64,000 nt of DNA. Source: an uncultured Sterolibacterium sp. (GTDB lineage Bacteria > Pseudomonadota > Gammaproteobacteria > Burkholderiales > Rhodocyclaceae). Below, piece after piece: positions 7,920 to 40,384 of this stretch (the first letter of the stretch is position 1; each line of letters begins with the position of its first letter). The stretch is from positions 7,173 to 71,172 of the forward strand of contig CAIVDC010000135.1 of NCBI GenBank assembly GCA_903904605.1. Direction: 5' to 3'. The notes under the pieces were generated by a model, which made no database searches, had not been told where the DNA came from, and worked only from the letters and a program-made list of their open reading frames with translations. Both the position numbers and the translations under genes were made by a program.

Positions 7920-8504
7920 ATGGGACAACAGCTAATGCAAACAGCGGCGGCGAAGACGCCGGCCGCCCAGGCTGCCGCCGCCGAGCTTCAGCAATACCTG
8001 ACCTTCCTGTCGGGCGGGGAGATGTACGGCCTGGCCATCCTGAACGTCAAGGAGATCATCGAGTACGGCAGTCTGACCGAGATCCCGATGATGCCGGCCT
8101 TCATCCGCGGCGTCATCAACCTGCGCGGCGCGGTGGTGCCGGTGGTGGACCTCCTGGCCCGCTTCGGCGGCAAGCAGACCGAGGTCGGCCGGCGCACCTG
8201 CATCGTCATCGTCGAGATGGAGAACGACGAGGGCCGCCAGGACATCGGCGTGGTGGTCGATGCGGTGAGCGAAGTGCTGGAGATCGCCGACGGCGATATC
8301 GAGCCGCCGCCGGCCTTCGGCGCGCGGATACGCACCGACTTCATCAACGGCATGGGCAAGGTCGCCGGCAAGTTCGTCATCCTGCTCAACATTCAGCGCG
8401 TCCTCTCGGCCGAGGAGATGGCCCTGCTGGCCCATGCCGGCGATGGCGGCCAGAGCGGCGAAAGCGCGGCGGCCCTGGAATCCGCGGCGCCGCAGCGCCC
8501 TTAA
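7920..8504 (+). CDS. cheW: CheW coupling protein
   Basis: CheW-like domain (QYLTFLSGGEMYGLAILNVKEIIEY, INLRGAVVPVVDL). The start was chosen at M15 of the track ORF (7878). It lies after the MCP stop and 8 nt downstream of GGAGG. Confidence 0.85.
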   Translation: MGQQLMQTAAAKTPAAQAAAAELQQYLTFLSGGEMYGLAILNVKEIIEYGSLTEIPMMPAFIRGVINLRGAVVPVVDLLARFGGKQTEVGRRTCIVIVEMENDEGRQDIGVVVDAVSEVLEIADGDIEPPPAFGARIRTDFINGMGKVAGKFVILLNIQRVLSAEEMALLAHAGDGGQSGESAAALESAAPQRP

Positions 8505-8521
8505 AGGCGCCGCGCTGCCCC

Positions 8522-9340
8522 ATGCCGTCCGCAACCGAGCCCAAGGTCAGCGATGCCGAGTTCGCCCAGTTCCAGGCGCTGATCTACCGGATCGCCGGCA
8601 TCAGCCTGTCGGACGCCAAGAAGCTCCTGCTCATGGGCCGCCTGGGGCGCCGCCTGCGGCACCATGGCCTGGCCAGCTACGGCGAGTACTTCCGGCTGGT
8701 CACCGGCGCCGCGGGCGCCGGCGAGCTGCAGATCATGGTGGATCTCTTGACCACCAACGAGACCTATTTCTTCCGCGAGGAAAAGCATTTCTCCTTCCTC
8801 TCCCAGCAGGTCCTGGCGCAGCATCCGCCCGGCCGCGGCTTCGACATCTGGAGCGCCGCCTGCTCCACCGGCGAGGAGGTCTACACCCTGGCCATGGTCC
8901 TGGCCGAGCGTTTCGGCCTGACGGCGACCTGGAGCGTCACCGGCTCCGACATCAGCACCCAGGTGCTGGCGGCGGCGGAACGCGGCCTCTATCCTATGGA
9001 GCGGGCGCGCGGCATGCCCAAGGAATACCTGCGAAAATACTGCCTGAAGGGCGTGCGCGAACACGAGGGCAGCTTCCTGATCGACCAGCCGCTGCGCCAG
9101 CATGTACGCTTCAGGCAGGTCAACCTGAACGAAGCGCTGTCCAACGCCGGTACCTATGATGTGATCTTCCTGCGCAACGTGATGATCTACTTCGACCTGG
9201 AAACCAAGCGCCAGGTGGTGGCCAGGCTGGCCAGCCAGCTCAGGCCGGGCGGCCACTTCATCGTCGGCCACTCGGAGTCCCTGAACGGCATCAACGAAAC
9301 CCTGCAACTGGTGCAGGCGACCGTCTACCGCAAGCCATGA
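8522..9340 (+). CDS. cheR: Chemotaxis protein methyltransferase CheR
   Basis: 272 aa. It shows [10 protein letters not shown], the SAM-binding stretch [17 protein letters not shown], and [11 protein letters not shown]. Confidence 0.9.
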
Positions 9341-9347
9341 GCCGCCC

Positions 9348-10454
9348 ATGAACAAGATAAAAGTCCTGATCGTCGACGACTCCGCGGTGGTGCGCCAGGT
9401 CGCCAAGGAAGTGCTCGATGCCGATCCGGGCATCGAGGTCATCGCCGTCGCCGCGGATCCGCTGATCGCCCTGGAACGCATGAAGCGGGGCTGGCCCGAC
9501 GTCATCGTGCTCGACATCGAAATGCCGCACATGGACGGCCTCACCTTCCTGCGCAAGATCATGGCCGAACACCCGACGCCGGTGGTGATCTGCTCGACCC
9601 TGACCGACCAGGGCGCCGAGACCACGCTGGAAGCCCTGTCCGCCGGCGCGGTGAACATCATCACCAAGCCGAAGCTGGGCCTGAAGCAGTTCCTCCAGGA
9701 CTCCTCCAACGACATCGTCGCCGCGGTGCGCGCGGCCTCTCACGCCAACATGCGCCGCCTGGCCGGAACGGCCGCGGCCAGTGCCGCCGCCGGCGCGCAC
9801 AAACCTGTGCCGAAGTTCACCGCCGACGCGGTGCTGGCCAGCGCCCCGCCTGTCCGCGCCATGGCCAGGACGACCGATGCGGTGGTGGCGATCGGCACCT
9901 CGACCGGCGGCACCCAGGCGCTGGAAGCGGTGCTCACGCAACTGCCGGCGGTGAGCACCGGCCTCGTCATCGTCCAGCACATGCCGGAAAAATTCACCGC
10001 CCTGTTCGCCCAGCGGCTGAACAGCATCTGCGCCATCGAGGTGCGCGAAGCGAAGAACGGCGACCGGGTCATTCCCGGCCTGGCCCTGATCGCCCCCGGC
10101 GGCCGCCACATGATGCTGAAGAGGAGCGGCGCCCAATACCAGGTCGAGGTCGTGGACGGCCCCCTGGTCAATCGCCACAAGCCTTCGGTCGACGTGCTCT
10201 TCCGCTCGGTGGCGCAGGCCGCCGGCCGCAACGCGCTGGGCATCATCATGACCGGCATGGGCGACGACGGCGCACGCGGCCTGCTCGAGATGCACGAGGC
10301 CGGCGCGACCACGCTCGCCGAGGACGAATCGACCTGCGTGGTGTTCGGCATGCCCAAGGAGGCGATCAAGCTCGGCGGCGCCGGCAAGGTGGTGCCGCTC
10401 AACCTGATTCCGCGCGAGATCATCGGTTTCGCGCCGGTCCCGACCTTGCGCTAA
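9348..10454 (+). CDS. cheB: Protein-glutamate methylesterase/deamidase CheB
   Basis: 368 aa. It combines a receiver domain ([20 protein letters not shown]) with an esterase domain ([18 protein letters not shown]). Confidence 0.9.
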
Positions 10455-27830: not shown

Positions 27831-29672
27831 TCAGCCGGGGCCGGTGTCGTACAGACGCTTCGCCCCGGCCGCGGAACGAGGCAGTGCTTCCTGTGCGGAT
27901 TGCGCATCGTCCTCATTGCCGAGCGCACTGGCACTCAGGTCCGGTCTCAGGCTGGCATCGATGAACGGCCGGGCGGAGACGCCGGCCGCCGCTTCTAGCG
28001 CCGCGAGGCGGGCTTCCACCGCTCCCGCCCAGTCGCCGGCGCTGCCGAAGACACTGCCCGGGCCGCCGCCCGGCCGATCTGCGAGCTTGTGGTCGGCGAA
28101 CTTGTCGGCGCCCTTGTCCAGGGCCGCGGACTTGTCCGTCATCGGCTTTTCCACTTCCTTGCGGACGCTCTTCTCGATCTCCTTGACCGCTTCCTTCCCG
28201 ACCTCCTTCGAGCTTTCCTTCAGGACATTCTTGCGGTCGGTGATCTCCTTCACCTTGACGACGCATTTCACCGCAACGGTGGCGCTCATGACCGCCGCGG
28301 AAGCCGAGATGTTGGATACCGACACGCAGGTATTGACACGGCCATAGCTGAGCGAGTTCGGGGTCGAGGCACTGTCGAACTTGCCGTTGTTGCTCGTGCC
28401 GGGGAAAGGATCGCCGGCATCGCCGCGGTTGTGGCCGAGTTCCAGGTCGCGCTTGCCGTCGGCCTGGATCAGGGCGACCTTGGGATGGTTCTCGTCGCTG
28501 TTGGCGGCGATGGACTCGTCTATGTGCCAGACGAGCAGGCCATCACCGGGCAAGTCCGCGTCGTAGCCTTTGCGTTGCCTGTTTTCCATCAGGAAGTATT
28601 CGTTGCCGCCGGCACCGTCCTTCCAGAGACGATAGAGGGTATGGCTGTCCTTGACGTCGCCGATGGACAGGTTGCCGTTGGCCGTCAGGTTGACGGTGCT
28701 GGCCCAGCCCTGATTGGCCTTGCACCAGGCGGACGGGTGGGAAGGAATATCTCCGCCGCCGTTCCAGCTGCCACCCGACATCAGGCACCAGTTGCCGACA
28801 CCGGAACTGGAATAGTCGGTGTCGTAAAGATCGGGAAGGCCGAACAGCAGGTGCCCCAGTTCATGGCAGCAAACGCCGATGCGGGAGTCCTCGGGGACCG
28901 TCAGATAGCTGTAGATCTTGGTGCTGCCGTCGGCGGTGTAGGCGCCGCCCGGCAGGTTCCATTTGTGCGACCAGATGTCACCCGAACTGCCCGATACTTC
29001 GGCGCCGGTCCCGGCATGGATGACGATGAAGGCATCGACGAAGCCGTCATGGTCGTTGTCGTATTGGGAATAGTCCACCGTCGGATTGGACGCCACGGCC
29101 GCGTCATAGGCCATGGTGCGCGCATTGGGCAGCGCCCCGCCCATGCCGGATGCGCCGTGAGCGTATTCGCCGAGTGTCTTCGGCAGGGTGAACGGGCCGG
29201 TCACCTGGCCGACGATGTCCACCAGGCCGTGGGTCACGTCCCGGTAGTATTCCCTGACGCTGCCGTGAGGAAGCTTGCCGAGCGAGAAGAACAGATCTTC
29301 GAAATGTGCCTTGGTGTTGGCCATGGTCTTGTCGGAAAACTGCGCCAGAACGACCGCCACCTTGAGCGTGCCGGTGAGCGGCGAACGATCCGCCGCGGCG
29401 CTCCTGACCACCCGGGCGGAAGTCCCGAGCGGAAACATGTCGCCGGGATAGATCAGACCATCGTTCATGCCGGGGGACGCGGGCGCCCTGAGCTTCATCA
29501 GATGGGCGATTTCGGGTGCCGCCGCCTTCATGTTGTCCAGTTGCGCTTTCAACTGTTTCGCCAGGTCCGGGTGAGGGGCCACCATGCAACGGTGGCCATC
29601 GTGGGTTTCCCGCGCGGCCCGGTAGACCCGCGCCACGGCCTGCAGAACTTCCCGCTGGTGTTCGTGCGACAT
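27831..29672 (-). CDS. M6-family (InhA-like) zinc metalloprotease, no signal peptide, with a 141-aa low-complexity C-terminal tail
   Basis: The start is at M23 of the track ORF (MSHEHQ), downstream of AGGAGGAG. The zinc motif is CCHELGHLLFGLPDLYD (HELGH at 28851-28865). Further M6-type conserved blocks are present (DIWSHKW, GNWCLMS, DGLLVWHID). The N-terminus is hydrophilic. Confidence 0.8.
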   Translation of the reverse strand: MSHEHQREVLQAVARVYRAARETHDGHRCMVAPHPDLAKQLKAQLDNMKAAAPEIAHLMKLRAPASPGMNDGLIYPGDMFPLGTSARVVRSAAADRSPLTGTLKVAVVLAQFSDKTMANTKAHFEDLFFSLGKLPHGSVREYYRDVTHGLVDIVGQVTGPFTLPKTLGEYAHGASGMGGALPNARTMAYDAAVASNPTVDYSQYDNDHDGFVDAFIVIHAGTGAEVSGSSGDIWSHKWNLPGGAYTADGSTKIYSYLTVPEDSRIGVCCHELGHLLFGLPDLYDTDYSSSGVGNWCLMSGGSWNGGGDIPSHPSAWCKANQGWASTVNLTANGNLSIGDVKDSHTLYRLWKDGAGGNEYFLMENRQRKGYDADLPGDGLLVWHIDESIAANSDENHPKVALIQADGKRDLELGHNRGDAGDPFPGTSNNGKFDSASTPNSLSYGRVNTCVSVSNISASAAVMSATVAVKCVVKVKEITDRKNVLKESSKEVGKEAVKEIEKSVRKEVEKPMTDKSAALDKGADKFADHKLADRPGGGPGSVFGSAGDWAGAVEARLAALEAAAGVSARPFIDASLRPDLSASALGNEDDAQSAQEALPRSAAGAKRLYDTGPG

Positions 29673-29724
29673 GTTCTCCTCCTTTCGCAGTCTATGGAGT
29701 CTCCTCTTGCGGCGAGACGTCGTA

Positions 29725-29747
29725 AATGCATACAGCATGTATGCATT
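29725..29747. promoter_or_regulatory. AT-rich perfect palindrome AATGCATACA-gca-TGTATGCATT (putative operator)
   Basis: 10-bp perfect inverted arms are separated by 3 nt. The site lies in the 223-bp divergent intergenic region between the M6 protease and the aldehyde dehydrogenase. Confidence 0.5.
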
Positions 29748-29895: not shown

Positions 29896-31332
29896 ATGGA
29901 AAACCGCGACAAGCTCTACATCAACGGCCGGTGGGCCATCCCGAACGGCAGGCAGACCATCGAGGTCATCAACCCCGCCACCGAGGCGGTGATCGGGCGC
30001 GTTCCCGAGGGTACGGAGACCGACGTCGCTGCGGCCGTCGCCGCGGCCCGGGCCGCCTTCCCCGAGTGGAGCCGGAGCACCCCGGAACAGCGCGCCGGAT
30101 TCCTGTCGAAGATCCAGGAAGGCCTGGCGGCCCGGACGGATGAGATCGCCCGCACCATCACCGCCGAGGTCGGCATGCCGCTCAAGCTCTCGACCCGGAT
30201 CCAGGCAGGTTCGCCCATCGCCATCTTCGGCCTCTACGCCAGGATGGCCGGTGAATTCAAGTTCGAGGAACAGGTCGGCCATTCGCGGGTTGTGCGTGAA
30301 CCCGTCGGCGTCGTCGCCCTGATCACGCCCTGGAACTACCCCCTGCACCAGATCGCCGCGAAAGTCGCGCCGGCCCTCGCTGCGGGCTGCACCATCGTGC
30401 TCAAGCCCTCGGAAGTGGCACCGCTCAATGCCTTCATCCTGGCCGAAGTGATCGCGGCGGCAGGCCTGCCCGACGGCGTCTTCAACCTAGTCACCGGTTT
30501 CGGCGCGGCGGTGGGCGAGGCGCTGGTGCGCCACCCCGAGGTGGACATGGTTTCCTTCACCGGTTCCACCCGCGCCGGAAAACGCGTCTCGGAACTGGCG
30601 GCGCAGACCGTCAAGCGCGTGGCGCTGGAACTGGGCGGCAAGTCGGCGGCCGTGATCCTCGACGACGCGGACTTCGCGACCGCCGTGAAGGCCACGGTCA
30701 ATGCCTGCTTCCTCAACAGCGGCCAGACCTGCACCGCCCACACGCGCATGCTGGTGCCCGAGTCCCGCTACGACGAAGCGGCGCAACTGGCCGTCGCAGC
30801 GGCGCAGGCGTTCACCCTCGGCGACCCCTTCGCCGACACCACCCGCCTGGGCCCCCTGGCCTCGGCGATGCAGCGGGACCGGGTGCGCGATTACATCAGG
30901 CAGGGCATCGGCGAAGGTGCCGTTCTGCTTTGCGGCGGACCGGAGGCGCCGGAGGCGCTGAGCCAGGGCTTTTACGTCAAACCGACGATCTTCGGCCGGG
31001 TCAGTCCCGGAAGCACGATCGCCCAGGAGGAGATCTTCGGCCCGGTGCTCGCCATCATCACCTACCGGGACGAGGACGATGCCGTGGCTATCGCCAACGG
31101 CACCCTCTACGGACTGGCCGGCGCGGTCTGGTCGGGCAGCGACGATCAGGCGCTGAAAGTGGCGCTGCGGCTGCGCACAGGCCAAATCGACATCAACGGC
31201 GGCGCGTTCAACCTGCAGGCGCCCTTCGGCGGCTACAAGCAGTCGGGCAACGGCCGCGAATTGGGCAAGTACGGCCTCGAGGAATTCCTCGAGTACAAGG
31301 CGCTGCAGATGAAGCCGGCGAAGGCCGGCTGA
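29896..31332 (+). CDS. NAD(P)+-dependent aldehyde dehydrogenase
   Basis: 478 aa. It has the catalytic Glu in [10 protein letters not shown] and the catalytic Cys in [10 protein letters not shown], plus EEIFGPV. Confidence 0.9.
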
Positions 31333-31625
31333 AACCAAGGGCTCGCCGCCTCGACCGGGATATTCAGCGCGGCGGCAAGTACCGACGCTCCTCTGCCCGG
31401 CTCTTTCGGTCCCCGGCTTTGCCGCCGCACTGATGGTCGGAGCAGCCGCGTGACGGCACGCCCAGGGCCGGGGTTCCGGAAAAACGCGGCATCGAAGCAC
31501 GGGGCAAACGGCCCACGTCTTCATCAGCTTGCCGCAGAAATGCAATTACAGTATTCTACATTCGCCTGCAAGCGCGCCCCGCTGCGGTCCCTCGACGATA
31601 GCCGCCCGGGCATGGCGGCGGAACG

Positions 31626-32414
31626 ATGCCAGACATGAGCGAACATATCCTGAGCGAAGTGACGGACGGCGTGCTTCAGATCGAGATCAGCCGCCGCAGC
31701 AAGAAGAATTCCCTGACCCAGTCGATGTATGCGGCGATGAGCGATGCGCTGCAGCAGGCCGATGCCGACGATGCCGTCCGCGTCGTCCTGCTGCGCGGAC
31801 AGGACGACCTGTTCACCGCCGGCAACGACCTGCAGGATTTCCTCTCGCGCAAGAGCAACGAACCCTCCGAAGCGATGCGCTTCATGCAGGTCATCGCCAC
31901 GTTCGGCAAGCCGCTGGTCGCCGCGGTTGCCGGCAACGCGATCGGTATCGGCACGACCATGCTGCTCCACTGCGATCTGGTCTACGCCGCCGACAATGCC
32001 CGTTTCCAGTTGCCTTTCGTACCGCTCGGATTGTGCCCCGAAGCCGGTTCCAGCCTTCTCCTGCCGCGGTTTGCCGGCCATCAACGCGCTGCCGAACTGC
32101 TTTTTTTCGGCGAGCCTTTCGATGCCGCGAAGGCCTGCGAGATCGGTCTGGTCAATGCAGTCCATCCGCATCCGGAACTGCTTGCCGCCGCAGGCGCGCG
32201 CGCGCGCAAGCTCGCGAGCCTGCCACAGGCGTCGCTCGCCGCGACCAAGTCGCTGATGAAACGCGCCACGGCAACTGTCGTCGCCGACACGATGCAGGCG
32301 GAACTGCTGCATTTCAGCGAACTGGTGGCCGCTCCCGTGGCCAAGGAAATCTTTGCCGCCTTCCTGGAAAAGCGCGCTCCCGATTTTTCAGGGATCGCGG
32401 CGCGCCGCCCATGA
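31626..32414 (+). CDS. Enoyl-CoA hydratase/isomerase family protein
   Basis: 262 aa. The crotonase fold shows FTAGNDLQDF and AVAGNAIGIGTTMLLHCD. MSEHIL at 31635 is an alternative start. Confidence 0.85.
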   Translation: MPDMSEHILSEVTDGVLQIEISRRSKKNSLTQSMYAAMSDALQQADADDAVRVVLLRGQDDLFTAGNDLQDFLSRKSNEPSEAMRFMQVIATFGKPLVAAVAGNAIGIGTTMLLHCDLVYAADNARFQLPFVPLGLCPEAGSSLLLPRFAGHQRAAELLFFGEPFDAAKACEIGLVNAVHPHPELLAAAGARARKLASLPQASLAATKSLMKRATATVVADTMQAELLHFSELVAAPVAKEIFAAFLEKRAPDFSGIAARRP

Positions 32415-32550
32415 GCGTTACGAACCGGCTCCCTGGGCAAAAACGATTCGAAGGCAGAAGCGGCCGACTGGCGGCCGCTTGAGACGCATCCGGTTGCGTG
32501 AAGCGCGTGACCGGATGAATGGCAATTCACCGGTGACTGGGAGATAGGCA

Positions 32551-32874
32551 ATGCGCTCGCCCCGATTCGGATTCTTCGGCATTTTCGTGCCGCTGCTGGT
32601 CTTGTCCCTTGCTGCAGGCGCTCAGGAACCGCAAGCCCCGCATCAGAATGCCGCCCCGCCCGATCCGGGGCGTGAACTGCTGTTGAGCAAATGCGGCCAG
32701 TGCCACACCGATTCGATCTGGCGCGACCAGCGTCAGGACGCGCGCGCCTGGGAAGCGACGCTCTATCGCATGCTGGCTCGCGGCGGCGTCTGGAGCAGTG
32801 AGGAGATCAAAACCATGAGCCAATACCTTGCGGCGAACTTCGGGCCCGATTCGCCCAGGACGCCGGCCCGTTGA
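32551..32874 (+). CDS. Small periplasmic monohaem c-type cytochrome
   Basis: 107 aa. It has a signal peptide (FGIFVPLLVLSLAAGAQE) and a single CGQCH haem-binding motif. Confidence 0.75.
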   Translation: MRSPRFGFFGIFVPLLVLSLAAGAQEPQAPHQNAAPPDPGRELLLSKCGQCHTDSIWRDQRQDARAWEATLYRMLARGGVWSSEEIKTMSQYLAANFGPDSPRTPAR

Positions 32875-32928
32875 CGCCAAGATCGGAAAGCCGCTGAAAT
32901 TTCCCGTGCGCCACCCTAGGAGCTATCG

Positions 32929-34860
32929 ATGAGAGATCTGGTCGAAAAATATCTGTCGAAGTCCATTTCGCGACGCGGCTTTCTGAACAACATGAAGAAG
33001 GTGGGCATCACGGTTGCATCGGCCAAAATGGTGCTGTCCTCGCTCTCCGATGCCGAGGCGCAGACCGCGACGGCCGGGACTTCGTCCGTCGCGGCGGCCT
33101 TGCCGGTCAAGCAGTTCCAGGGTACGGGCGGCGCCTGCCTGGCCGAGCAGCTCATGGCCTGTGGCGTCAGATATGTCTTCGGCAATTCGGCCAGCGAGGA
33201 CGCCGCATTCTATGACGCGCTGGTCGATCGGCCGCAGCTGAATTACATCCTGACCCCGCATGAAGGCCCCGGTGCCGCCATGGCCGCCGGCTATATCAAG
33301 GCCTCTCAGCAGCCGGCGATCGTCATGCAGGCGGGCGCCGTAGGTCTGATGAACGCCATGGGGCAACTGTTCAATGCCCACAAGGAGCAGACTCCGCTGG
33401 TGGTCTATTCCTATCGCACCGATCGGTCGCGCAACGCCGGGTGGGACGGTTTCGAGGAGATCGCCAACCAGGAACAGGTGGTGCAGCCGTTGACCAAATA
33501 TTCGTGGATGGCGCGCGGTTCATCGACGATTGCCGAAACGGTGCGCCATGCCTTCAAGACCTCATGGACGCCGCCTCACGGCCCTTCCTATCTGACCTGG
33601 CACTCCGACTATACCGGCGAGCGGACCCGTACCGAAATCGTGCAACAAAGCCATTTCGACCCGCGCATGCACGTGCGCCCCAACCCGGCTGAAATCGAGC
33701 GTGCGGCCAGGATGCTGGTGGCGGCCAGGATGCCGGTCCTGGTGGTGGGCGACGAGATATACAAGGCCAAGGCAGTCGCCAAGGCCGTGAAACTGGCCGA
33801 ACTGCTCGGCATGCCCGTCACCCAGATGCGCCAGCTGTGGGTCAACTTCCCGCAAGCTCATCCGCTGTGGGTCGGCAATGCGCCGGCGGGTCGCCTGGCG
33901 TCGATTACCTGGCCGAAGAACTTCGATGTCGCCATCAACGTCGGCAACAAGATGCAGCATTCGGGCGCCGCCCCCATCGTCGCGCACGAGATCAAATTCA
34001 TCGACATGCGCATCGACTTCAACAACATGGGCAAAGTCATGACGACCGATGTGCCCCTCGTCTGCGATGTCGGTCTCGGCCTGGACGATCTTATCGCCGC
34101 GGTCGAGCAGATCATGACGCCGAAGCTGCATCAGCTGGCGGCAGATCGTGCGTTGGAAGTGAAAAAGTATACGGACCATGCCCGGGTATTGCTGAAAGGG
34201 GTGGTCAATAATCCCGAGTGGGACAACGCGCCGCTCATCGCCGATCGCGTGACCTGGGAAGTCGCTCAATTCGCCGACCCCGATGCCATCATCGTCCATG
34301 AAGCGGGCTCGGTGGCCATGCACTCGTTCGGTTTCAATCCCGTCGGCGGACGGGAATTGTTCTACTACTACGGGGGCCATCTGGGCTCCGGCGTCGGCGC
34401 AGCCGCCGGCATCAAGCTCGCGCGCCCCAACCAGCAGGTCATCTGCATGGTCGGCGACGGCTCCTTCCTGTTCGGCCCGCAGGCTCTGTGGAACATGGCG
34501 CGCCTAGAGTTGCCGGTCATCGTCATCGTATACAACAACCACGCCTATGGCGGCCCGCATTCGCGCTCCATCGCCAATGTGCCATCCGGGCGCATGGTTG
34601 AAACCGGCCATTACATGGCCAGCTACCTCGGCAATCCGGACATGAACATGGCGTCGATCGCGGCCGGTTTCGGCGTCAAGGGCGAAGTCGTCAATGACCC
34701 CGTGCAACTGAAGGCGGCGCTCGCACGCGCCAGGAAGTCCAGCGTCGACGGAAGGCCCTATCTCATCGATGTTCAGGTCGTGCGGCGCGGCATCGGCTGG
34801 ACCGAGTCGCCCTGGACTCCGCCGGTCAAGGGAGCAGAGATGCGCTCCCGGAAAGTCTAG
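32929..34860 (+). CDS. Thiamine-diphosphate-dependent enzyme (acetolactate-synthase/benzoylformate-decarboxylase superfamily) with a twin-arginine export signal
   Basis: 643 aa. The Tat motif is SRRGFL (32968-32985), followed by a hydrophobic region and AEA. The PYR domain carries the catalytic Glu (TPHEGPGAAMAAGY). The ThDP-binding motif is GDGSFLF...VIVIVYNNHAYG. Confidence 0.8.
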   Translation: MRDLVEKYLSKSISRRGFLNNMKKVGITVASAKMVLSSLSDAEAQTATAGTSSVAAALPVKQFQGTGGACLAEQLMACGVRYVFGNSASEDAAFYDALVDRPQLNYILTPHEGPGAAMAAGYIKASQQPAIVMQAGAVGLMNAMGQLFNAHKEQTPLVVYSYRTDRSRNAGWDGFEEIANQEQVVQPLTKYSWMARGSSTIAETVRHAFKTSWTPPHGPSYLTWHSDYTGERTRTEIVQQSHFDPRMHVRPNPAEIERAARMLVAARMPVLVVGDEIYKAKAVAKAVKLAELLGMPVTQMRQLWVNFPQAHPLWVGNAPAGRLASITWPKNFDVAINVGNKMQHSGAAPIVAHEIKFIDMRIDFNNMGKVMTTDVPLVCDVGLGLDDLIAAVEQIMTPKLHQLAADRALEVKKYTDHARVLLKGVVNNPEWDNAPLIADRVTWEVAQFADPDAIIVHEAGSVAMHSFGFNPVGGRELFYYYGGHLGSGVGAAAGIKLARPNQQVICMVGDGSFLFGPQALWNMARLELPVIVIVYNNHAYGGPHSRSIANVPSGRMVETGHYMASYLGNPDMNMASIAAGFGVKGEVVNDPVQLKAALARARKSSVDGRPYLIDVQVVRRGIGWTESPWTPPVKGAEMRSRKV

Positions 34861-34861
34861 A

Positions 34862-35179
34862 ATGGCATCGACCCTGTGGCGGTACCGATGGCTGGTCGGG
34901 GTCGTTTTGTTCGCCGTCTATGGACTTTCCAGGGCCGGTGAAGCCGATGAGCTTGGACAGGGGCGCGAAATATATCGCGACGCCTGCGCCAGCTGCCATG
35001 GCAACGAGATGATGAATCCCGGTCTGGCGTTTGATCTGCGAAAATTCCCCAAGGGGGATCCCGAGCGTTTCCGGAATTCAGTCCTGAACGGCAAGGGGCA
35101 AGGGATGCCCGCCCTGAAGGGACAACTGTCTGCGGAAGACATCGAGGCCCTGTGGGCCTATGTGAAGAGCGGCGGTTGA
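34862..35179 (+). CDS. Small periplasmic monohaem c-type cytochrome
   Basis: The start is at M32 of the track ORF (MASTLWRY), 1 nt after the stop of the ThDP enzyme. It has a signal peptide and a CASCHG haem motif. Confidence 0.75.
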   Translation: MASTLWRYRWLVGVVLFAVYGLSRAGEADELGQGREIYRDACASCHGNEMMNPGLAFDLRKFPKGDPERFRNSVLNGKGQGMPALKGQLSAEDIEALWAYVKSGG

Positions 35180-35209
35180 GGTTCTCCTTTGTCGCGAAGG
35201 GCTGGATTC

Positions 35210-35238
35210 TTGACAAATTGGGGTGTTATAATTATCAA
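35210..35238 (+). promoter_or_regulatory. Putative promoter of the collagen-like lipoprotein gene (TTGACA-N17-TATCAA)
   Basis: A perfect -35 TTGACA lies at 35210-35215. The -10 candidate TATCAA lies at 35233-35238. A TATAAT at 35227-35232 is too close, at 11 nt spacing. Confidence 0.3.
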
Positions 35239-35318
35239 CTGGTTGGAATGAATCCCGGCCCACCTCGATTTTTTGTAGTTGTTTTGCCTCACTCCTTATC
35301 GATAAAGGGAAATATAAA

Positions 35319-35603
35319 ATGAAACAGTCTCTGCTCGTAGCTGCATTGGTTGCCCTGGCTGTTACAGCCTGCGGCAAGAAAGAAACCCCCCCGCCCGCCC
35401 CGGCTCCGGCTCCGGTTGAGGCTCCTGCTCCTGCCGCGGCCCCGGCCCCGGCCGCTGAAGCTCCGGCTGGTGCTACTGGTGCTACCGGTGCCACTGGCGC
35501 CTCCGGTGCTCCGGGTGCCACTGGTGCCACGGGCGCCACTGGTGCCACCGGCGCTGCCGGCGCTCCTGCTGCCGAGCCGAAGAAGGAAGAGCCCAAGAAG
35601 TAA
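35319..35603 (+). CDS. Small lipoprotein with a Pro/Ala-rich linker and collagen-like Gly-X-Y repeats
   Basis: 94 aa. It has the lipobox LAVTAC, the linker ETPPPAPAPAPVEAPAPAAAPAPAA, 11 consecutive G-X-Y triplets (GATGATGATGASGAPGATGATGATGATGAAGAP) and a KKEEPKK tail. A strong terminator follows. Confidence 0.8.
   Translation: MKQSLLVAALVALAVTACGKKETPPPAPAPAPVEAPAPAAAPAPAAEAPAGATGATGATGASGAPGATGATGATGATGAAGAPAAEPKKEEPKK
35469..35567 (+). repeat. In-frame 9-nt tandem repeat (GGTGCYACY)n encoding the collagen-like triplets
   Basis: The tandem periodicity is directly visible in the sequence and lies inside the lipoprotein CDS. Confidence 0.85.
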
Positions 35604-36484: not shown

Positions 36485-38329
36485 TTACTCCAATCCAAAA
36501 GCAAGGAAGGCATTGCCCGGGATGATGCCGGAATGGTGAGAGTACCCTGAATTGGCAAACACCATTCCGTCGACGACGGCGACTCCGCCATCGCTGATGG
36601 AGCCGCCACGGGCTTTTACGCCGTTCACGGTGCTGAAAGCCTGGGCCGTATTGAACTCCCAGATGATCCTGCCGTCCACCGCCGAATAGACGCGCAGCCG
36701 GCCGTCCACCGAGCCGGAAAATACCACGCCGGGGATCGCGGTGACGGCGGCAGCTTGAACCTTGCCACACGGTTTCCTGCTGCCGCAATCGGGATGAGGG
36801 GTCTTCCAGAGCAGCTTGCCCGTCTTGATGTCGACGGCGGCCAGTCCCCCGCCCGAGTTCGGATCAATCACCCGTCCGACCCGCTTGGAATCCGAAAGGG
36901 CCGCATACACGCGCTCGCCATCCATCGCCGACCCCCACATGATGCCGCCGGAAGTGCCGCCGACGCCAACCCGCTGCTCCCAGAGGAGGTCACCCTTGCT
37001 ATCCGGATCAAGAGCGAAGAGTACGCCCGATTTCTGCCCGACGATGAGCATCGGCCGGCTGCCCAACTGCTCGACCAGGATCGGCGGAGAAGCGAAGTCA
37101 TAGTCGGGGGCCTCCTGATTGGCGCAGTTGGCATGGTCGCCGGCGGTCTCGGGACAACTCCCGTTCCAGGTATCGTTCGGCGTGATCTGACGGAACCAAA
37201 GTATCTTCCCCGATTTCAGATCCATCGCGACTATCGAATCGGACATCGGCGCCACCGGGGCCGAATAGGAGTTCCCCGTTCCGACATAGAGGGCGTTGCG
37301 CTTCTCGTCGATCGTGGGAGAGCTCCATACCGCGGCGCCGGACGGTCCCCAGGACTGAACCCCGGCGCTGCTCACTTGTGTCGGGTGGGCCTCATCGGAA
37401 ATCATGAAGGTCTTCCAGACCTGTTTTCCGGTGACTGCGTCAAGCGCGACCACGCTGCCCCGGAAACGGCAACAGGAATAGCGTGGATCGGCGGCCATCG
37501 ATTCCTCGCGCGACGACACGGGAACGTAGAGCAGTCCGCCGGATAGCTTGAGCGCTCCGCTGACGCGGGCCAACGGGTAGGGGTCGAGCTTGGTCTTCCA
37601 CAGGAGCTTCCCGCTCGACGCGTCCACGGCATAGGCGTTTGCAGCCAGATCGGAAAAGTAGGCGACCAAGCCGTTGCTTGCGCCTCGCCCGAGGGTGATT
37701 GCGCTGCGGATGCCCGCCTCGGTTTCCAGCCTCCAGTGAATGCACCCGGTCTTGGCGTCGAGCGAGAATACATCGCCTTCCCAACTGGAGATGTAGACCC
37801 GCCCACCGAGCACAACCGGTTGCGAACTGGCTGAGGTCGCACCGGGGAAGCCAAACGCCCATTTCAGCTTCAGGCGGGAAACAGCGTTCGCGCTGATGCC
37901 GGCGTCCCGGGCCGGCTGAAATCGCGTGTTTGCCTGAGTGACGCCCCAGCCGTTCCAGGCCGGGCCGGACAGGCTGCTCTCAAAGCCGCTGGCCGAACCG
38001 CGGCAGTAAGCGGACGGCGGGATAGCTGCCAGGGGCGCATCACCCAGACGCTTCCCGGAAAGGTATTCGGCCAGGGCGCGGCGCTCCGCCCGGCTGCGCT
38101 CGGCACCCACCTTGGCCATCGATCCCTTTTCGAGCGCCGAAAGGATCTGTTCCGGCGACATCAGTTTCAAGACGTCCCGCTCCGGAGCGCGGGATTCGCC
38201 GTCCGATTCGTGACAGGTCGCGCAAAAGGTCTTGAACAGAGCCGCCGCTTCCTGCGCCGAAGCAGGCACAGCCAAAACCAGGATGCCAAAGGCGAGGAGA
38301 ACTTGAAATCGAGTCATTGAAATACGCAT
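36485..38329 (-). CDS. PQQ-type quinohaemoprotein dehydrogenase with an N-terminal cytochrome c domain (polyvinyl-alcohol-dehydrogenase-like architecture)
   Basis: The start is at M42 of the track ORF (MRISMTRF), after AGGAGG. It has a signal peptide and a CATCHE haem motif. A beta-propeller region follows, with repeated G..W motifs as in PQQ enzymes. Confidence 0.75.
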   Translation of the reverse strand: MRISMTRFQVLLAFGILVLAVPASAQEAAALFKTFCATCHESDGESRAPERDVLKLMSPEQILSALEKGSMAKVGAERSRAERRALAEYLSGKRLGDAPLAAIPPSAYCRGSASGFESSLSGPAWNGWGVTQANTRFQPARDAGISANAVSRLKLKWAFGFPGATSASSQPVVLGGRVYISSWEGDVFSLDAKTGCIHWRLETEAGIRSAITLGRGASNGLVAYFSDLAANAYAVDASSGKLLWKTKLDPYPLARVSGALKLSGGLLYVPVSSREESMAADPRYSCCRFRGSVVALDAVTGKQVWKTFMISDEAHPTQVSSAGVQSWGPSGAAVWSSPTIDEKRNALYVGTGNSYSAPVAPMSDSIVAMDLKSGKILWFRQITPNDTWNGSCPETAGDHANCANQEAPDYDFASPPILVEQLGSRPMLIVGQKSGVLFALDPDSKGDLLWEQRVGVGGTSGGIMWGSAMDGERVYAALSDSKRVGRVIDPNSGGGLAAVDIKTGKLLWKTPHPDCGSRKPCGKVQAAAVTAIPGVVFSGSVDGRLRVYSAVDGRIIWEFNTAQAFSTVNGVKARGGSISDGGVAVVDGMVFANSGYSHHSGIIPGNAFLAFGLE

Positions 38330-38629
38330 GCTTCCTCCTGACGTTGGGCCCCGTTCATGTCGGCACTTCGCAGGCCATGTCCTGGTGCGTCTGCCGGCGA
38401 TAAAGATGGCAAACTCCGTTGCCCGGAAGCATGCCTCGAAATACCGGGTCACGGTCGGCCAGCAGCCAGTGTAAGGGATTTCACCGGTGGCGGTTCGGGA
38501 CGATGGCCTTCATCGCCGGGCGCCGCTGCAGAAGCGTCTCGACTTCAAAACACCGCCCGGCGCTTTCCGGAAAAAGGCTACACTCGCGGCACAGCGCCGT
38601 TGCAGTTCAGATTTGAATCCGCCCCATCA

Positions 38630-40384
38630 ATGACACAATGCGATTCTGATAATGACAAAAGCGAAGCCACGTCGATGAAAGCTCCGGCTCCTGAAGGCGA
38701 GGAGGCCATATACAAAATCAGATTCCTGTTCAGCGTATTTCTGCTGGCGGGAATCGTGGCCGGCGCAATGGGTTTCGTCCGCTGGCCGGCAAGCCACCTG
38801 CTGGGCTCGATCGACTTCGGCTTCGCGGCGCTCAGCCTTGTTCTGCTTTTCTATCTGGAAGGCCACAAGCAGCATGTCGAGGCGATCGGCACATTGGCGC
38901 TGCTTCTTTCCTACATCCTGTTCCTGGCCATCTACCTCCTGGCGCCCCACAACACGATGCGCTTGTCGCTGTTCTTCCTGCTCTCGGCATCGGGATTCTT
39001 CCTGAAGGGCCGACAGATCGGCCGGTTGTGGCTTGCCGGCGTCATCCTCACCATCGTTTCCGTTCATGTTTCCGGTCACTTCGCGACGGCCTACTCGAAT
39101 CTGGACATTTCCACGACGTGCATCTACCTGGTAGCCCTGTTCTTTATCTTCGAGAATTACGAGTCGTTCAAGGAACAGGTGCATCAGCGCCGATACGCCG
39201 AGGCCAATGCCTTGCGGGCCAAGGAAACTGCCGAAGCCGCCAACCTGGCCAAGAGCCGTTTCCTCGCCAACATGAGCCACGAGATCAGGACTCCGATGAA
39301 CGGCATCGTCGGGATGGCCAACATCCTGCGACGGGAAGGCGTCACGCCCAAGCAGGCGGAGCGTCTCGACACCATCGACAGATCCGCCCAACACCTGCTC
39401 GGCATCATCAACGACATACTCGACATATCGAAAATCGAGGCCGGCAAGTTCGTGCTGGAGGAAGCACCGGTCGAGGTCATCAAGCTGCTGGGCGATGTCA
39501 CCTCGATGGTGTCAGAACGCGCCAGGGCCGAAGGCAAGAGCATCCTCCTGCGGTACGAGACAGAGTCGATGCCGCCCGACCTGCTGGGCGATCCCACGCG
39601 AGTGCAACAGGCTCTGCTCAACTACGCCACCAATGCGATCAAATTTACCAAGAACGGCAGCGTGACCCTGCGCGCGCTGCCGCAGGAGGAAACCGCCGGG
39701 TCGGTGCTGGTACGATTCGAAGTGCAGGACAGCGGTATCGGCATCGCTCCCGAAACCATGGCCCGCCTCTTCAATGCCTTCGAGCAAGCCGACAATTCGA
39801 TGACGCGCAAGTACGGCGGCACCGGTCTTGGACTGGCGATTACCCGGCGCCTGGCCGAACTGATGGGCGGCGAAACTGGAGCGGAAAGCACCCCGGGCGT
39901 GGGCAGCACCTTCTGGTTTTCCGCGAAGCTGAAGAAGAACATGAGGGCAGTCGTCAAGCCGCAGGAGGCGAATGGCGACGCCGAGGCACTGATCAGGCAG
40001 CGCCATGCCGGGAAGAATATCCTGGTCGCGGACGACGAACCGATAAACCGGGAAGTGGCCCGGTTCCAACTGGAGGCGGTCGGGCTTTGCGTGGATATGG
40101 CGGAGGACGGCGCGGAGGCCGTCAAGCTGGCCGGGAGGAAGGACTATGCGGCCATTTTCATGGACATGCAGATGCCGAAGCTGAACGGACTGGACGCAAC
40201 GCGACGGATACGCGAAATGCCGGGCTACCGGCAGACATCCATTATCGCCATGACAGCCAATGCCTTCGTCGATGACAAGGCGCAATGCCTGGCGGCCGGT
40301 ATGAATGAGTTTCTGGTCAAGCCCTTCGATCCCGATATGCTGTTTGCCACCTTGCTGAGATCGCTCGAGCAGCGCCATGTCTAG
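38630..40384 (+). CDS. Hybrid sensor histidine kinase/response regulator with a multi-TM N-terminal sensor
   Basis: The start is at M92 of the track ORF; M107 at 38675 is an alternative. It has about 6 predicted TM helices, the H-box FLANMSHEIRTPMNGI, the HATPase G-boxes DSGIGI and GGTGLGLAI, and a receiver domain (ILVADDEPINR, DMQMPKLNG). Confidence 0.85.
   Translation: MTQCDSDNDKSEATSMKAPAPEGEEAIYKIRFLFSVFLLAGIVAGAMGFVRWPASHLLGSIDFGFAALSLVLLFYLEGHKQHVEAIGTLALLLSYILFLAIYLLAPHNTMRLSLFFLLSASGFFLKGRQIGRLWLAGVILTIVSVHVSGHFATAYSNLDISTTCIYLVALFFIFENYESFKEQVHQRRYAEANALRAKETAEAANLAKSRFLANMSHEIRTPMNGIVGMANILRREGVTPKQAERLDTIDRSAQHLLGIINDILDISKIEAGKFVLEEAPVEVIKLLGDVTSMVSERARAEGKSILLRYETESMPPDLLGDPTRVQQALLNYATNAIKFTKNGSVTLRALPQEETAGSVLVRFEVQDSGIGIAPETMARLFNAFEQADNSMTRKYGGTGLGLAITRRLAELMGGETGAESTPGVGSTFWFSAKLKKNMRAVVKPQEANGDAEALIRQRHAGKNILVADDEPINREVARFQLEAVGLCVDMAEDGAEAVKLAGRKDYAAIFMDMQMPKLNGLDATRRIREMPGYRQTSIIAMTANAFVDDKAQCLAAGMNEFLVKPFDPDMLFATLLRSLEQRHV

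Follow-up and report, generated by a model that had tools for sequence, protein, structure and literature searches.

A conserved operon for a thiamine-diphosphate enzyme with a twin-arginine leader and two c-type cytochromes: a candidate periplasmic oxidoreductase

The enzymes dependent on thiamine diphosphate (ThDP) that we know of are cytoplasmic or organellar, and the oxidative ones among them pass their electrons to FAD, lipoamide, or Fe–S clusters. The locus considered here lies in a 64,000-nucleotide stretch of DNA (hereafter the window) from contig CAIVDC010000135.1 of an uncultured Sterolibacterium sp., and it encodes a ThDP enzyme with a twin-arginine leader whose gene is flanked by two genes for exported monohaem cytochromes c, named cytA (on the 5′ side) and cytB (on the 3′ side). 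According to the reading that we favour, and that we hold to be somewhat better supported than an even chance, a ThDP holo-enzyme exported via Tat (twin-arginine translocation) oxidises a 2-oxo acid or an aldehyde in the periplasm, and the electrons pass to the haem c of cytA, then to cytB, and finally to the respiratory chain. The ThDP scaffold is known; what would be new is the compartment, the partner, and probably the chemistry, and there is a substantial chance that the triad represents a new class of respiratory dehydrogenases.

Among the described ThDP enzymes, benzoylformate decarboxylase (BFDC) and 4-hydroxybenzoylformate decarboxylase (MdlC; PDB 1bfd, 6qsi, and 7orx) share with the window protein the PYR/TH3/PP fold, the catalytic Glu, the GDG...NN motif, and the equivalent of BFDC S26. 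However, BFDC has neither a leader, nor cytochrome partners, nor a C-terminal extension, and its residues H70, H281, and L110 are replaced in the window protein. PoxB, the pyruvate:quinone oxidoreductase formerly called “pyruvate dehydrogenase (cytochrome)”, belongs to the same superfamily and performs the oxidative decarboxylation, acyl-ThDP hydrolysis, and respiratory feeding that are proposed below for the window enzyme. At the same time, PoxB is a cytoplasmic, peripheral membrane protein with FAD as the carrier and quinone as the acceptor, whereas here the partner is a haem c, the compartment is predicted to be the periplasm, and the nearest relatives are FAD-free. A precedent for the flavin-free, one-electron oxidation of a ThDP enamine is provided by PFOR/OFOR, in which a nearby metal centre acts via a hydroxyethyl-ThDP radical, although PFOR has an unrelated architecture with three [4Fe–4S] clusters, depends on CoA, and is cytoplasmic.

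As for the arrangement of subunits, the sulfite-oxidising systems SorAB (Starkeya novella) and SorT/SorU consist of a Tat-exported catalytic subunit and an adjacent Sec-exported monohaem acceptor, with a soluble cytochrome carrying the electrons onward; the window triad has the same layout, its export being a prediction. The cofactor of SorAB is, however, molybdopterin, and the similarity between cytA and SorB is far under the family cutoff. Dedicated c-type cytochromes, or else the respiratory chain, also receive the electrons when small alcohols or aldehydes are oxidised in the periplasm by methanol and alcohol dehydrogenases with cytochrome cL or c550 (MxaFI–MxaG and PedE–PedF) or by the aldehyde oxidoreductase PaoABC, but these enzymes use pyrroloquinoline quinone (PQQ) or Mo/FeS/FAD and have unrelated folds. 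In its layout, the proposed system also corresponds to methanol dehydrogenase with cytochrome cL. In the literature searched, no periplasmic, Tat-exported, or cytochrome-c-linked ThDP enzyme has been described; the sole lead, an acetone-induced ThDP enzyme of Desulfococcus biacutus, was set aside as it has no predicted signal peptide. The names given to family members in the source records are generic (“thiamine pyrophosphate-binding protein”, “benzoylformate decarboxylase”, “hypothetical protein”, “mono/diheme cytochrome c”).

The ThDP enzyme and its obligate cytochrome partners

The system combines a ThDP fold complete with its cofactor motifs, a conserved leader, and an obligate linkage to two exported c-type cytochromes. 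A search of 5.8 billion proteins with the ThDP protein gave 1389 matches at E ≤ 1e-20, the best 120 of which are 69–100% identical to it, nearly all with full query coverage. Via this protein, 16 genome loci were retrieved from metagenome-assembled genomes (MAGs) of Sterolibacterium, Burkholderiales, Beijerinckiaceae, Xanthobacteraceae, other Alphaproteobacteria, and Acidobacteriota. In all 15 loci that include upstream sequence, which represent Betaproteobacteria, Alphaproteobacteria, and Acidobacteriota, cytA lies directly 5′ of the ThDP gene, and in 11 loci cytB lies directly 3′ of it. An independent metagenome scan, anchored on cytA alone, yielded 80 loci; its query was the narrower cytA alignment (A3) and not the broad one, so the scan is biased to the core family. 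The leader-bearing ThDP gene was found from residue 1 just 3′ of cytA in 77 of the 77 informative loci, the remaining three extending less than 140 nt beyond cytA, and cytB came next in each of the 31 loci in which the ThDP gene is complete and a further 330 nt or more follow it. Conservation of the cytochrome–ThDP–cytochrome triad, which the initial annotation had named as a check on its proposal, is thus borne out in both collections.

ORF clustering across 52 loci revealed nothing universal beyond the triad, all other neighbours being lineage-specific: TctC-type solute-binding proteins in 22 loci, enoyl-CoA hydratase in 10 (window included), and Peripla_BP_6 in 3. In one soil lineage (~12 loci), the triad is flanked by a plsX-fabH-ihfA-merR block, and by its position amid such housekeeping genes it behaves as a self-contained module. 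The functional unit is three genes, which form an obligate operon. The aldehyde dehydrogenase and enoyl-CoA hydratase genes upstream in the window, considered as further members of the unit, were ruled out by the same clustering. Metagenomes from soil and humic lakes commonly contain the operon, and all loci with an organism named in the source record are MAGs. Plasmids in PLSDB carry no copy, only leaderless relatives with less than 31% identity. Among 270 family proteins, no cytochrome–ThDP gene fusion was found; the N-terminal extensions of two proteins (P0124 and P0181), considered as such fusions, turned out to be mis-called starts.

The number of haems is constant even where the number of cytochromes is not. 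In Acidobacteriota members of the core family, cytA is dihaem, and every dihaem locus lacks cytB. Loci hold either a monohaem cytA together with cytB or a dihaem cytA alone, so the system always offers two haems, which may be read as a pair of one-electron acceptors serving a donor of two electrons.

The assignment of the central protein to the ThDP superfamily, made initially from the Glu in HEGPG and the GDGS...NN motif, is upheld. Pfam recognises TPP_enzyme_N, TPP_enzyme_M, and TPP_enzyme_C in that order (E 2.5e-24, 5.2e-19, and 1.6e-27, all above gathering scores), and residues G509-D510-G511 and N536-N537 follow the GDG-X(24-27)-NN pattern of the Mg–ThDP site. The residues E112, D510, G511, N536, and N537 do not vary across an alignment of 80 sequences, and all of them save N536 are also invariant in a 168-sequence alignment. 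No NCBIfam model reaches its cutoff for this protein, the best being PRK08327 (239 of 456 bits required) and the BFDC model PRK07092 (238.6 of 493 bits). The best PDB matches by sequence are benzoylformate decarboxylases (E ~1e-36). An AlphaFold2 (AF2) model has a mean predicted local distance difference test score (pLDDT) of 92.7, and Foldseek places it next to (4-hydroxy)benzoylformate decarboxylases, with a target-normalised TM-score (TMt) of 0.87 and 24–25% identity, followed by cyclohexane-1,2-dione hydrolase (CDH, 0.81) and benzaldehyde lyase (BAL).

The active site differs from that of BFDC at the positions of both catalytic histidines. S26 of BFDC is retained as S89, but H70 aligns with A135 (Ala in 111 and Ser in 8 of the 119 core members), H281 aligns with G346, and there is no conserved His at either position. 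The hydrophobic L110 of BFDC corresponds to an invariant E176, and Q134, D91, and R301 likewise do not vary within the core family. The protein has a BFDC-like fold and yet is not a BFDC. In BFDC, acid–base roles have been assigned to H70 and H281, including protonation of the enamine before aldehyde release; their loss would fit an enzyme that keeps the enamine for oxidation, and the polar character of the pocket suggests a small polar substrate. In addition, members of the twin-arginine (RR) clade carry a C-terminal extension of ~25 residues with the invariant W629 and a basic tail, which is absent from BFDC and from leaderless relatives and could serve as a docking surface or an electron relay.

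The protein has four Cys residues, none of them in a cluster motif, and hence no Fe–S site. A flavin has to be considered: in a periplasmic flavo-ThDP enzyme resembling pyruvate oxidase (POX) or PoxB, FAD in the middle domain would take both electrons and reduce cytA, giving a ThDP–FAD–haem c chain. All known oxidative members of the fold that lack Fe–S (POX, PoxB) use FAD in TPP_enzyme_M, this domain is present and well modelled here, and the FAD-containing CDH is among the structural matches. However, the nearest neighbours in both sequence and structure, the BFDCs and BAL, are FAD-free and match better than CDH does. The middle domain reads VVGDE after the first strand, which we take to be nearer to LGPD of BFDC and LGSE of BAL than to the GGG/GxG of FAD/ADP binders, a comparison that serves as a lead rather than a test. 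On balance, the flavin route appears rather unlikely, and direct reduction of haem c is preferred.

More distant members of the RR clade extend the association with cytochromes. Relatives with 36–37% identity adjoin cytA-type cytochromes at four loci (L021, L027, L109, and L110); for one of these relatives, P0131 (37% identical), the gene just 3′ encodes a cytA-like monohaem cytochrome. Around another, P0133, and its relatives, the genes follow a fixed order with overlapping stop and start codons: a TonB-dependent receptor, a bicupin, a dihaem cytA-type cytochrome, the RR-ThDP enzyme, a family III CoA-transferase, and UbiD. This arrangement recurs in Acidobacteriota-type contigs (L027:2-8000, L109:2851-12356, and L110:876-10381), and the version in L111 adds a UbiX-like flavoprotein. 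The gene content of the operon suggests a pathway, divided between periplasm and cytoplasm, that handles an aromatic or dicarboxylic acid. At L021, a second ThDP-enzyme gene, cut by the contig end (L021:1-1635), stands directly 5′ of P0131, which suggests tandem ThDP paralogues in that lineage.

The leader and the compartment of the enzyme

The leader is the feature on which the periplasmic assignment turns. Of the 120 best homologues, 119 start with M-[RK]-[DE]-x-V-x-x-Y-L-x-x-x-I-S-R-R-G-F (the consensus being MRDLVxxYLxxxISRRGFL), the odd one being a truncated ORF. The start that includes the RR pair is thus the conserved one, and the conserved downstream start that the initial annotation had named as refuting its proposal is not seen. 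In all 119 core members, the leader leads to a small-x-small motif (AEA, AHA, ANA, or ASA), then to a variable linker rich in Ala, Pro, Ser, and Thr, and then to a conserved VKxFxGTGGA. The linker differs among orthologues in length and composition, and AF2 gives residues 45–55 a pLDDT below 50. Over the 44 leader codons, the window and its nearest relative (L001) differ by 14 synonymous and 4 non-synonymous codon changes, indicating that the region is translated and under purifying selection. An exhaustive search found ~25 further representative clusters at 50% identity that share the leader (28–45% identical, 606–659 aa), while leaderless relatives are ~550–565 aa long and align from about query residue 66. 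R15, R16, and F18 are present in 119 of 119 core members and in 25 of 25 selected divergent ones.

In part, the leader resembles a Tat signal. S14-R15-R16-G-F18-L19 follows the [ST]-R-R-x-F-L-K type of motif, and the best 12-residue Kyte–Doolittle mean is 1.72, with a family median of 1.55; both values fall within the range spanned by ten E. coli Tat signals (1.35–2.05). A quarter of the core members, those with Gln at position +17 after RR, have a fully uncharged h-region. In the window protein, this position is occupied by K33, which leaves a longest uncharged run of eight residues. The description of the leader as a “textbook” twin-arginine signal therefore has to be withdrawn, given K33 in the h-region, the silence of Tat hidden Markov models (HMMs), the three helices of the AF2 model, and the occurrence of the same module on bicupins that lack RR.

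The same N-terminal module is found on a large family of bicupins of ~430 aa (611 matches), with the pattern MRxLLAKLVxGxISRRxF...GFG..TVESILDxV. Examples lie at L027:2596-3879, L109:6001-7254, and L111:6001-10064, and the proteins are named “ethanolamine ammonia lyase-activating protein” by PGAP and “quercetin dioxygenase-like” by JGI. Some bicupin paralogues have canonical Tat signals, in which the same n-region helix and RR are followed by an uncharged h-region of 16–17 residues; some signals of this type precede a His-rich stretch, and an AHA site is present in the second bicupin paralogue of L111. Other bicupins carry Glu in the h-region.

Several observations weigh against the view that the leader exports an enzyme which feeds the cytochromes. 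Position +17 is most often charged in the core family (Glu in 76, Gln in 30, and Lys in 11 of 119). The models TIGR01409 and PF10518 had no match on three leaders at E up to 10, though the HMMER filters may drop matches as short as these; the Tat HMM scan gave only weak matches, to the N-termini of YghX, PvdP, and PsbQ. Conservation is equally high in the leader and in the catalytic domain. AF2 folds residues 1–44 into three helices with pLDDT 87–94, as against ~50 for the Sec signal of cytA. A subgroup of bicupins has neither RR nor any hydrophobicity and still retains the motif of the third helix, and it shares an operon with the dihaem cytochrome and the RR-ThDP enzyme; a module borne by such polar proteins may have a non-targeting role, exclusively or in addition. 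The related operons include enzymes of cytoplasmic type, namely the family III CoA-transferase and UbiD. In three other divergent RR-ThDP clusters, mostly on short contigs, no CxxCH gene is adjacent, and the loci L022, L024, L025, and L026 show no neighbouring cytochrome, so the association with cytochromes may hold for only part of the RR clade. Finally, we know of no ThDP enzyme that reduces haem c directly.

Taken to their limit, the observations on the leader would make the N-terminal module a small folded or chaperone-binding domain, comparable to the vestigial Tat leader of NarG; the enzyme would then be cytoplasmic, perhaps at the membrane, and its linkage to the cytochromes would reflect co-regulation within a two-compartment pathway. 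The well-modelled helices, the silent HMMs, the charged h-region residue, the bicupin modules devoid of RR and hydrophobicity, and the CoA-transferase and UbiD genes of the related operons all speak in this direction. They are opposed by the invariance of RR-x-F in the ThDP clade, by the signal-peptidase-type motif and variable linker of every core member, by the uncharged h-region in a quarter of them, and by a hydrophobicity equal to that of known Tat signals. Moreover, canonical Tat signals occur on sister bicupins that share the n-region, and the sole invariant partners of the enzyme are two obligately periplasmic cytochromes. A cytoplasmic enzyme is thus quite improbable.

Export to the periplasm is therefore retained as the preferred reading. 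Sec-exported c-type cytochromes are periplasmic, and a ThDP enzyme working with them must be periplasmic too. ThDP is made in the cytoplasm, and cytoplasmic insertion of a cofactor is the classical reason for Tat export. A TonB-dependent outer-membrane receptor at the head of the related operons also counts for a periplasmic location. From the sequences compared, the leader would represent a genuine Tat leader family whose flanks probably have a second conserved function, and herein lies the main uncertainty of the periplasmic claim. This second function could lie in recruiting a dedicated chaperone (compare TorA/TorD and the vestigial leader of NarG) or in pairing with a partner for hitchhiker export. 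Two other identities were tried for the leader, an encapsulation peptide for a bacterial microcompartment and a domain like the ubiquitin-associated (UBA) one, and neither is supported: there are no shell genes, and there is no family match.

The cytochromes and the proposed route of electrons

The domain alignment of cytA contains invariant C, C, H, W, M, and G residues, consistent with His/Met ligation. Only two relatives of cytA are detectable: SorB, which is the cytochrome subunit of SorAB, and the quinohaemoprotein amine dehydrogenase (QHNDH) haem domain. Both are fixed acceptors inside periplasmic dehydrogenases. By sequence, the matches are weak: SorB in NCBIfam (E 1.1e-4; 22.2 bits with a cutoff of 93), PF09098 (E 0.002; 18.2 bits with a cutoff of 25.2), and QHNDH 1jmx (E 0.005). 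The AF2 core has a pLDDT of 78–89, and Foldseek ranks SorB first (2blf_B, E 0.43) and QHNDH second (1jju_A), both weakly. Since all scores are under their thresholds, this is a resemblance and not membership; cytA is a candidate for a dedicated electron-accepting subunit. In turn, cytB is a class I cytochrome c that matches PF13442, Cytochrome_CBB3 (E 1.1e-15, 58.1 bits, cutoff 27), and PF00034 (30 bits, cutoff 21.3). Its PDB matches by sequence are the haem domain of CcoP, cytochrome c6, and the haem domain of alcohol dehydrogenase IIB, with weak matches at the NCBIfam level to SorU and PedF/MoxG. It is a candidate for the soluble shuttle to the respiratory chain.

From the features described above we infer export, direct electron transfer from ThDP to haem, the type of reaction, and the class of substrate. 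The enzyme would bind ThDP–Mg2+ and oligomerise in the cytoplasm, and the folded protein would then cross the membrane via Tat by means of its 44-residue RR leader. In the periplasm, it would pair with cytA, the Sec-exported, SorB-like, probably His/Met-ligated monohaem cytochrome, as the dedicated acceptor. ThDP would add to a small carbonyl compound, such as a 2-oxo acid (which would lose CO2) or, alternatively, an aldehyde, to form the C2-alpha carbanion/enamine. A decarboxylase would protonate this intermediate and free an aldehyde; here, the haem c of cytA would oxidise it in two one-electron steps to acyl-ThDP, the hydrolysis of which would release a carboxylic acid. The electrons would move on via cytB, or via the second haem of a dihaem cytA, to a terminal oxidase or reductase.

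The same set of genes can be explained without a redox role for ThDP. The protein could be a periplasmic decarboxylase, lyase, or carboligase, acting, for instance, in acyloin or diketone cleavage or in aryl-glyoxylate decarboxylation to an aldehyde, and the cytochromes would then serve a separate dehydrogenase that oxidises the product, for example a PQQ enzyme. The BFDC/BAL-like fold is compatible with this, and so is a PQQ quinohaemoprotein gene 1.3 kb from the triad in the window, together with PQQ-like ORFs ~5 kb from it at L011 and L015. Nevertheless, no dehydrogenase is conserved along with the triad: of the 16 genome loci, only 2 have PQQ-like ORFs near the ThDP gene, the 80 metagenome loci have none, and one lineage carries the triad among housekeeping genes. 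The presence of the cytochromes, on the other hand, is constant, and the catalytic histidines of BFDC are missing. A non-redox role thus seems rather improbable. The statement of the initial annotation that a PQQ quinohaemoprotein lies nearby on the opposite strand is correct as regards its existence but does not extend to membership of the conserved unit; the PQQ enzyme, not being syntenic elsewhere, was ruled out as a member.

If ThDP does reduce the haem of cytA, an acceptor of this kind implies that a scaffold like that of BFDC supports radical chemistry of the PFOR type. The triad would then constitute a new class, 2-oxo-acid or aldehyde:cytochrome c oxidoreductase, with a wide distribution among Proteobacteria and Acidobacteriota of soil and fresh water. 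Its owners would gain respiratory electrons, in a way that has gone unrecognised, from 2-oxo acids and aldehydes, including photoproducts of dissolved organic matter, with no need to import them. A broader proposition is held more tentatively, at somewhat less than an even chance: that this is the first extracytoplasmic ThDP enzyme, that electrons pass directly from the enamine to haem c with no flavin or Fe–S cluster, that the class is a new respiratory one, and that the three-helix leader, shared with the bicupins, marks a dedicated route of export and assembly, such as a chaperone specific to the leader or the hitchhiker co-export of partners with degenerate leaders. In the latter respect, the leader would offer a handle on a possibly new family of Tat leaders and chaperones. 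Consisting of only three genes, the system is experimentally tractable.

The triad and its surroundings in the window

The coordinates of the triad and of the PQQ gene are collected in Table 1. Both cytochrome genes encode signal-bearing CxxCH proteins, as had been noted initially, and all of these features were found again where they had been placed, including the gap of 1 nt between the ThDP stop codon TAG, which ends at 34860, and the cytB ATG. The gap between cytA and the ThDP ORF is 54 nt. A Shine–Dalgarno sequence AGGAG lies 6 nt 5′ of the ThDP ATG, and because of an in-frame TAG four codons upstream the ORF cannot start earlier. A promoter and terminator scan of 32300–35400 gave nothing informative, and an Rfam scan of the whole window gave zero matches, hence no TPP riboswitch.

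Table 1. Features of the triad and of the PQQ gene (window positions)
Feature	Position	Strand	Description
cytA	32551–32874	+	107-aa ORF; Sec-type signal, residues 1–24 (hydrophobic N-terminus MRSPRFGFFGIFVPLLVLSLAAGA, cut before QE); single CGQCH at 32692–32706
cytA Met74	32770–32772	+	Invariant; probable sixth ligand
ThDP enzyme ORF	32929–34860	+	643 aa
Leader, residues 1–44	32929–33060	+	n-region helix MRDLVEKYLSKSI; h-region VGITVASAKMVLSSL
Twin-arginine motif SRRGFL, residues 14–19	32971–32976 (RR codons)		Part of the leader
AEA, residues 42–44			Part of the leader; positions −3 to −1
Linker, residues 45–59	33061–33105	+	Variable, Ala/Thr/Ser/Pro-rich; ends before mature-start motif VKQFQGTGGA
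Catalytic body	33106–34860	+	PYR domain, middle domain, PP domain
Catalytic Glu E112 (in PHEGPG)	33262–33264	+	PYR domain
GDGS, residues 509–512	34453–34464	+	PP domain
NN, residues 536–537	34534–34539	+	PP domain
C-terminal extension, residues 619–643	34783–34857	+	RR-clade-specific; invariant W629 at 34813–34815
cytB	34862–35179	+	105 aa; signal, residues 1–25; CASCH at 34985–34999; GMPA present
PQQ quinohaemoprotein dehydrogenase	36485–38452 (ORF)	−	Likely true start 38329; PQQ beta-propeller, N-terminal cytochrome c domain (CATCH)

Upstream of the triad, two genes, one for a 478-aa aldehyde dehydrogenase and the other for a 262-aa enoyl-CoA hydratase, adjoin cytA on the same strand (29896–32414, +). 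This pair is kept only in the closest Sterolibacterium MAG (L001), while an enoyl-CoA hydratase gene lies near the triad, on either strand, in 10 of the 52 clustered loci. Further upstream (27831–29738, −), a 635-aa ORF has the zinc-metalloprotease motif HELGH and a long, charged C-terminal tail of low complexity. At other loci, the neighbours are different. In Beijerinckiaceae MAGs (L004–L006 and L012; ~8300–9560, +), a gene for a TctC-like solute-binding protein stands directly 5′ of cytA, with a dienelactone-hydrolase-family gene and DUF2269 also near; at L007 and L013, a Peripla_BP_6 binding protein follows cytB. These neighbours provide weak hints of a carboxylate as product or substrate.

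The PQQ protein matches Pfam PQQ (E 8.6e-34) and Cytochrome_CBB3, and its PDB matches are (type II) quinohaemoprotein alcohol dehydrogenases (E 9e-20 at best). The N-terminal rather than C-terminal position of its cytochrome c domain is the layout of quinohaemoproteins of the polyvinyl-alcohol-dehydrogenase type. The divergently transcribed neighbour of this gene (38357–40384, +) encodes a hybrid histidine kinase that crosses the membrane several times and has a receiver domain; the kinase may be the regulator of the PQQ gene.

Right after cytB, a sigma-70-like TTGACA/TATAAT pair was spotted by eye, the scan of 32300–35400 not having picked it up. The ORF at 35319–35603 (+) encodes a small predicted lipoprotein (MKQSLLVAALVALAVTAC...) composed nearly entirely of Ala/Pro and collagen-like GAT/GAP triplet repeats, with a match to Pfam Collagen below threshold.

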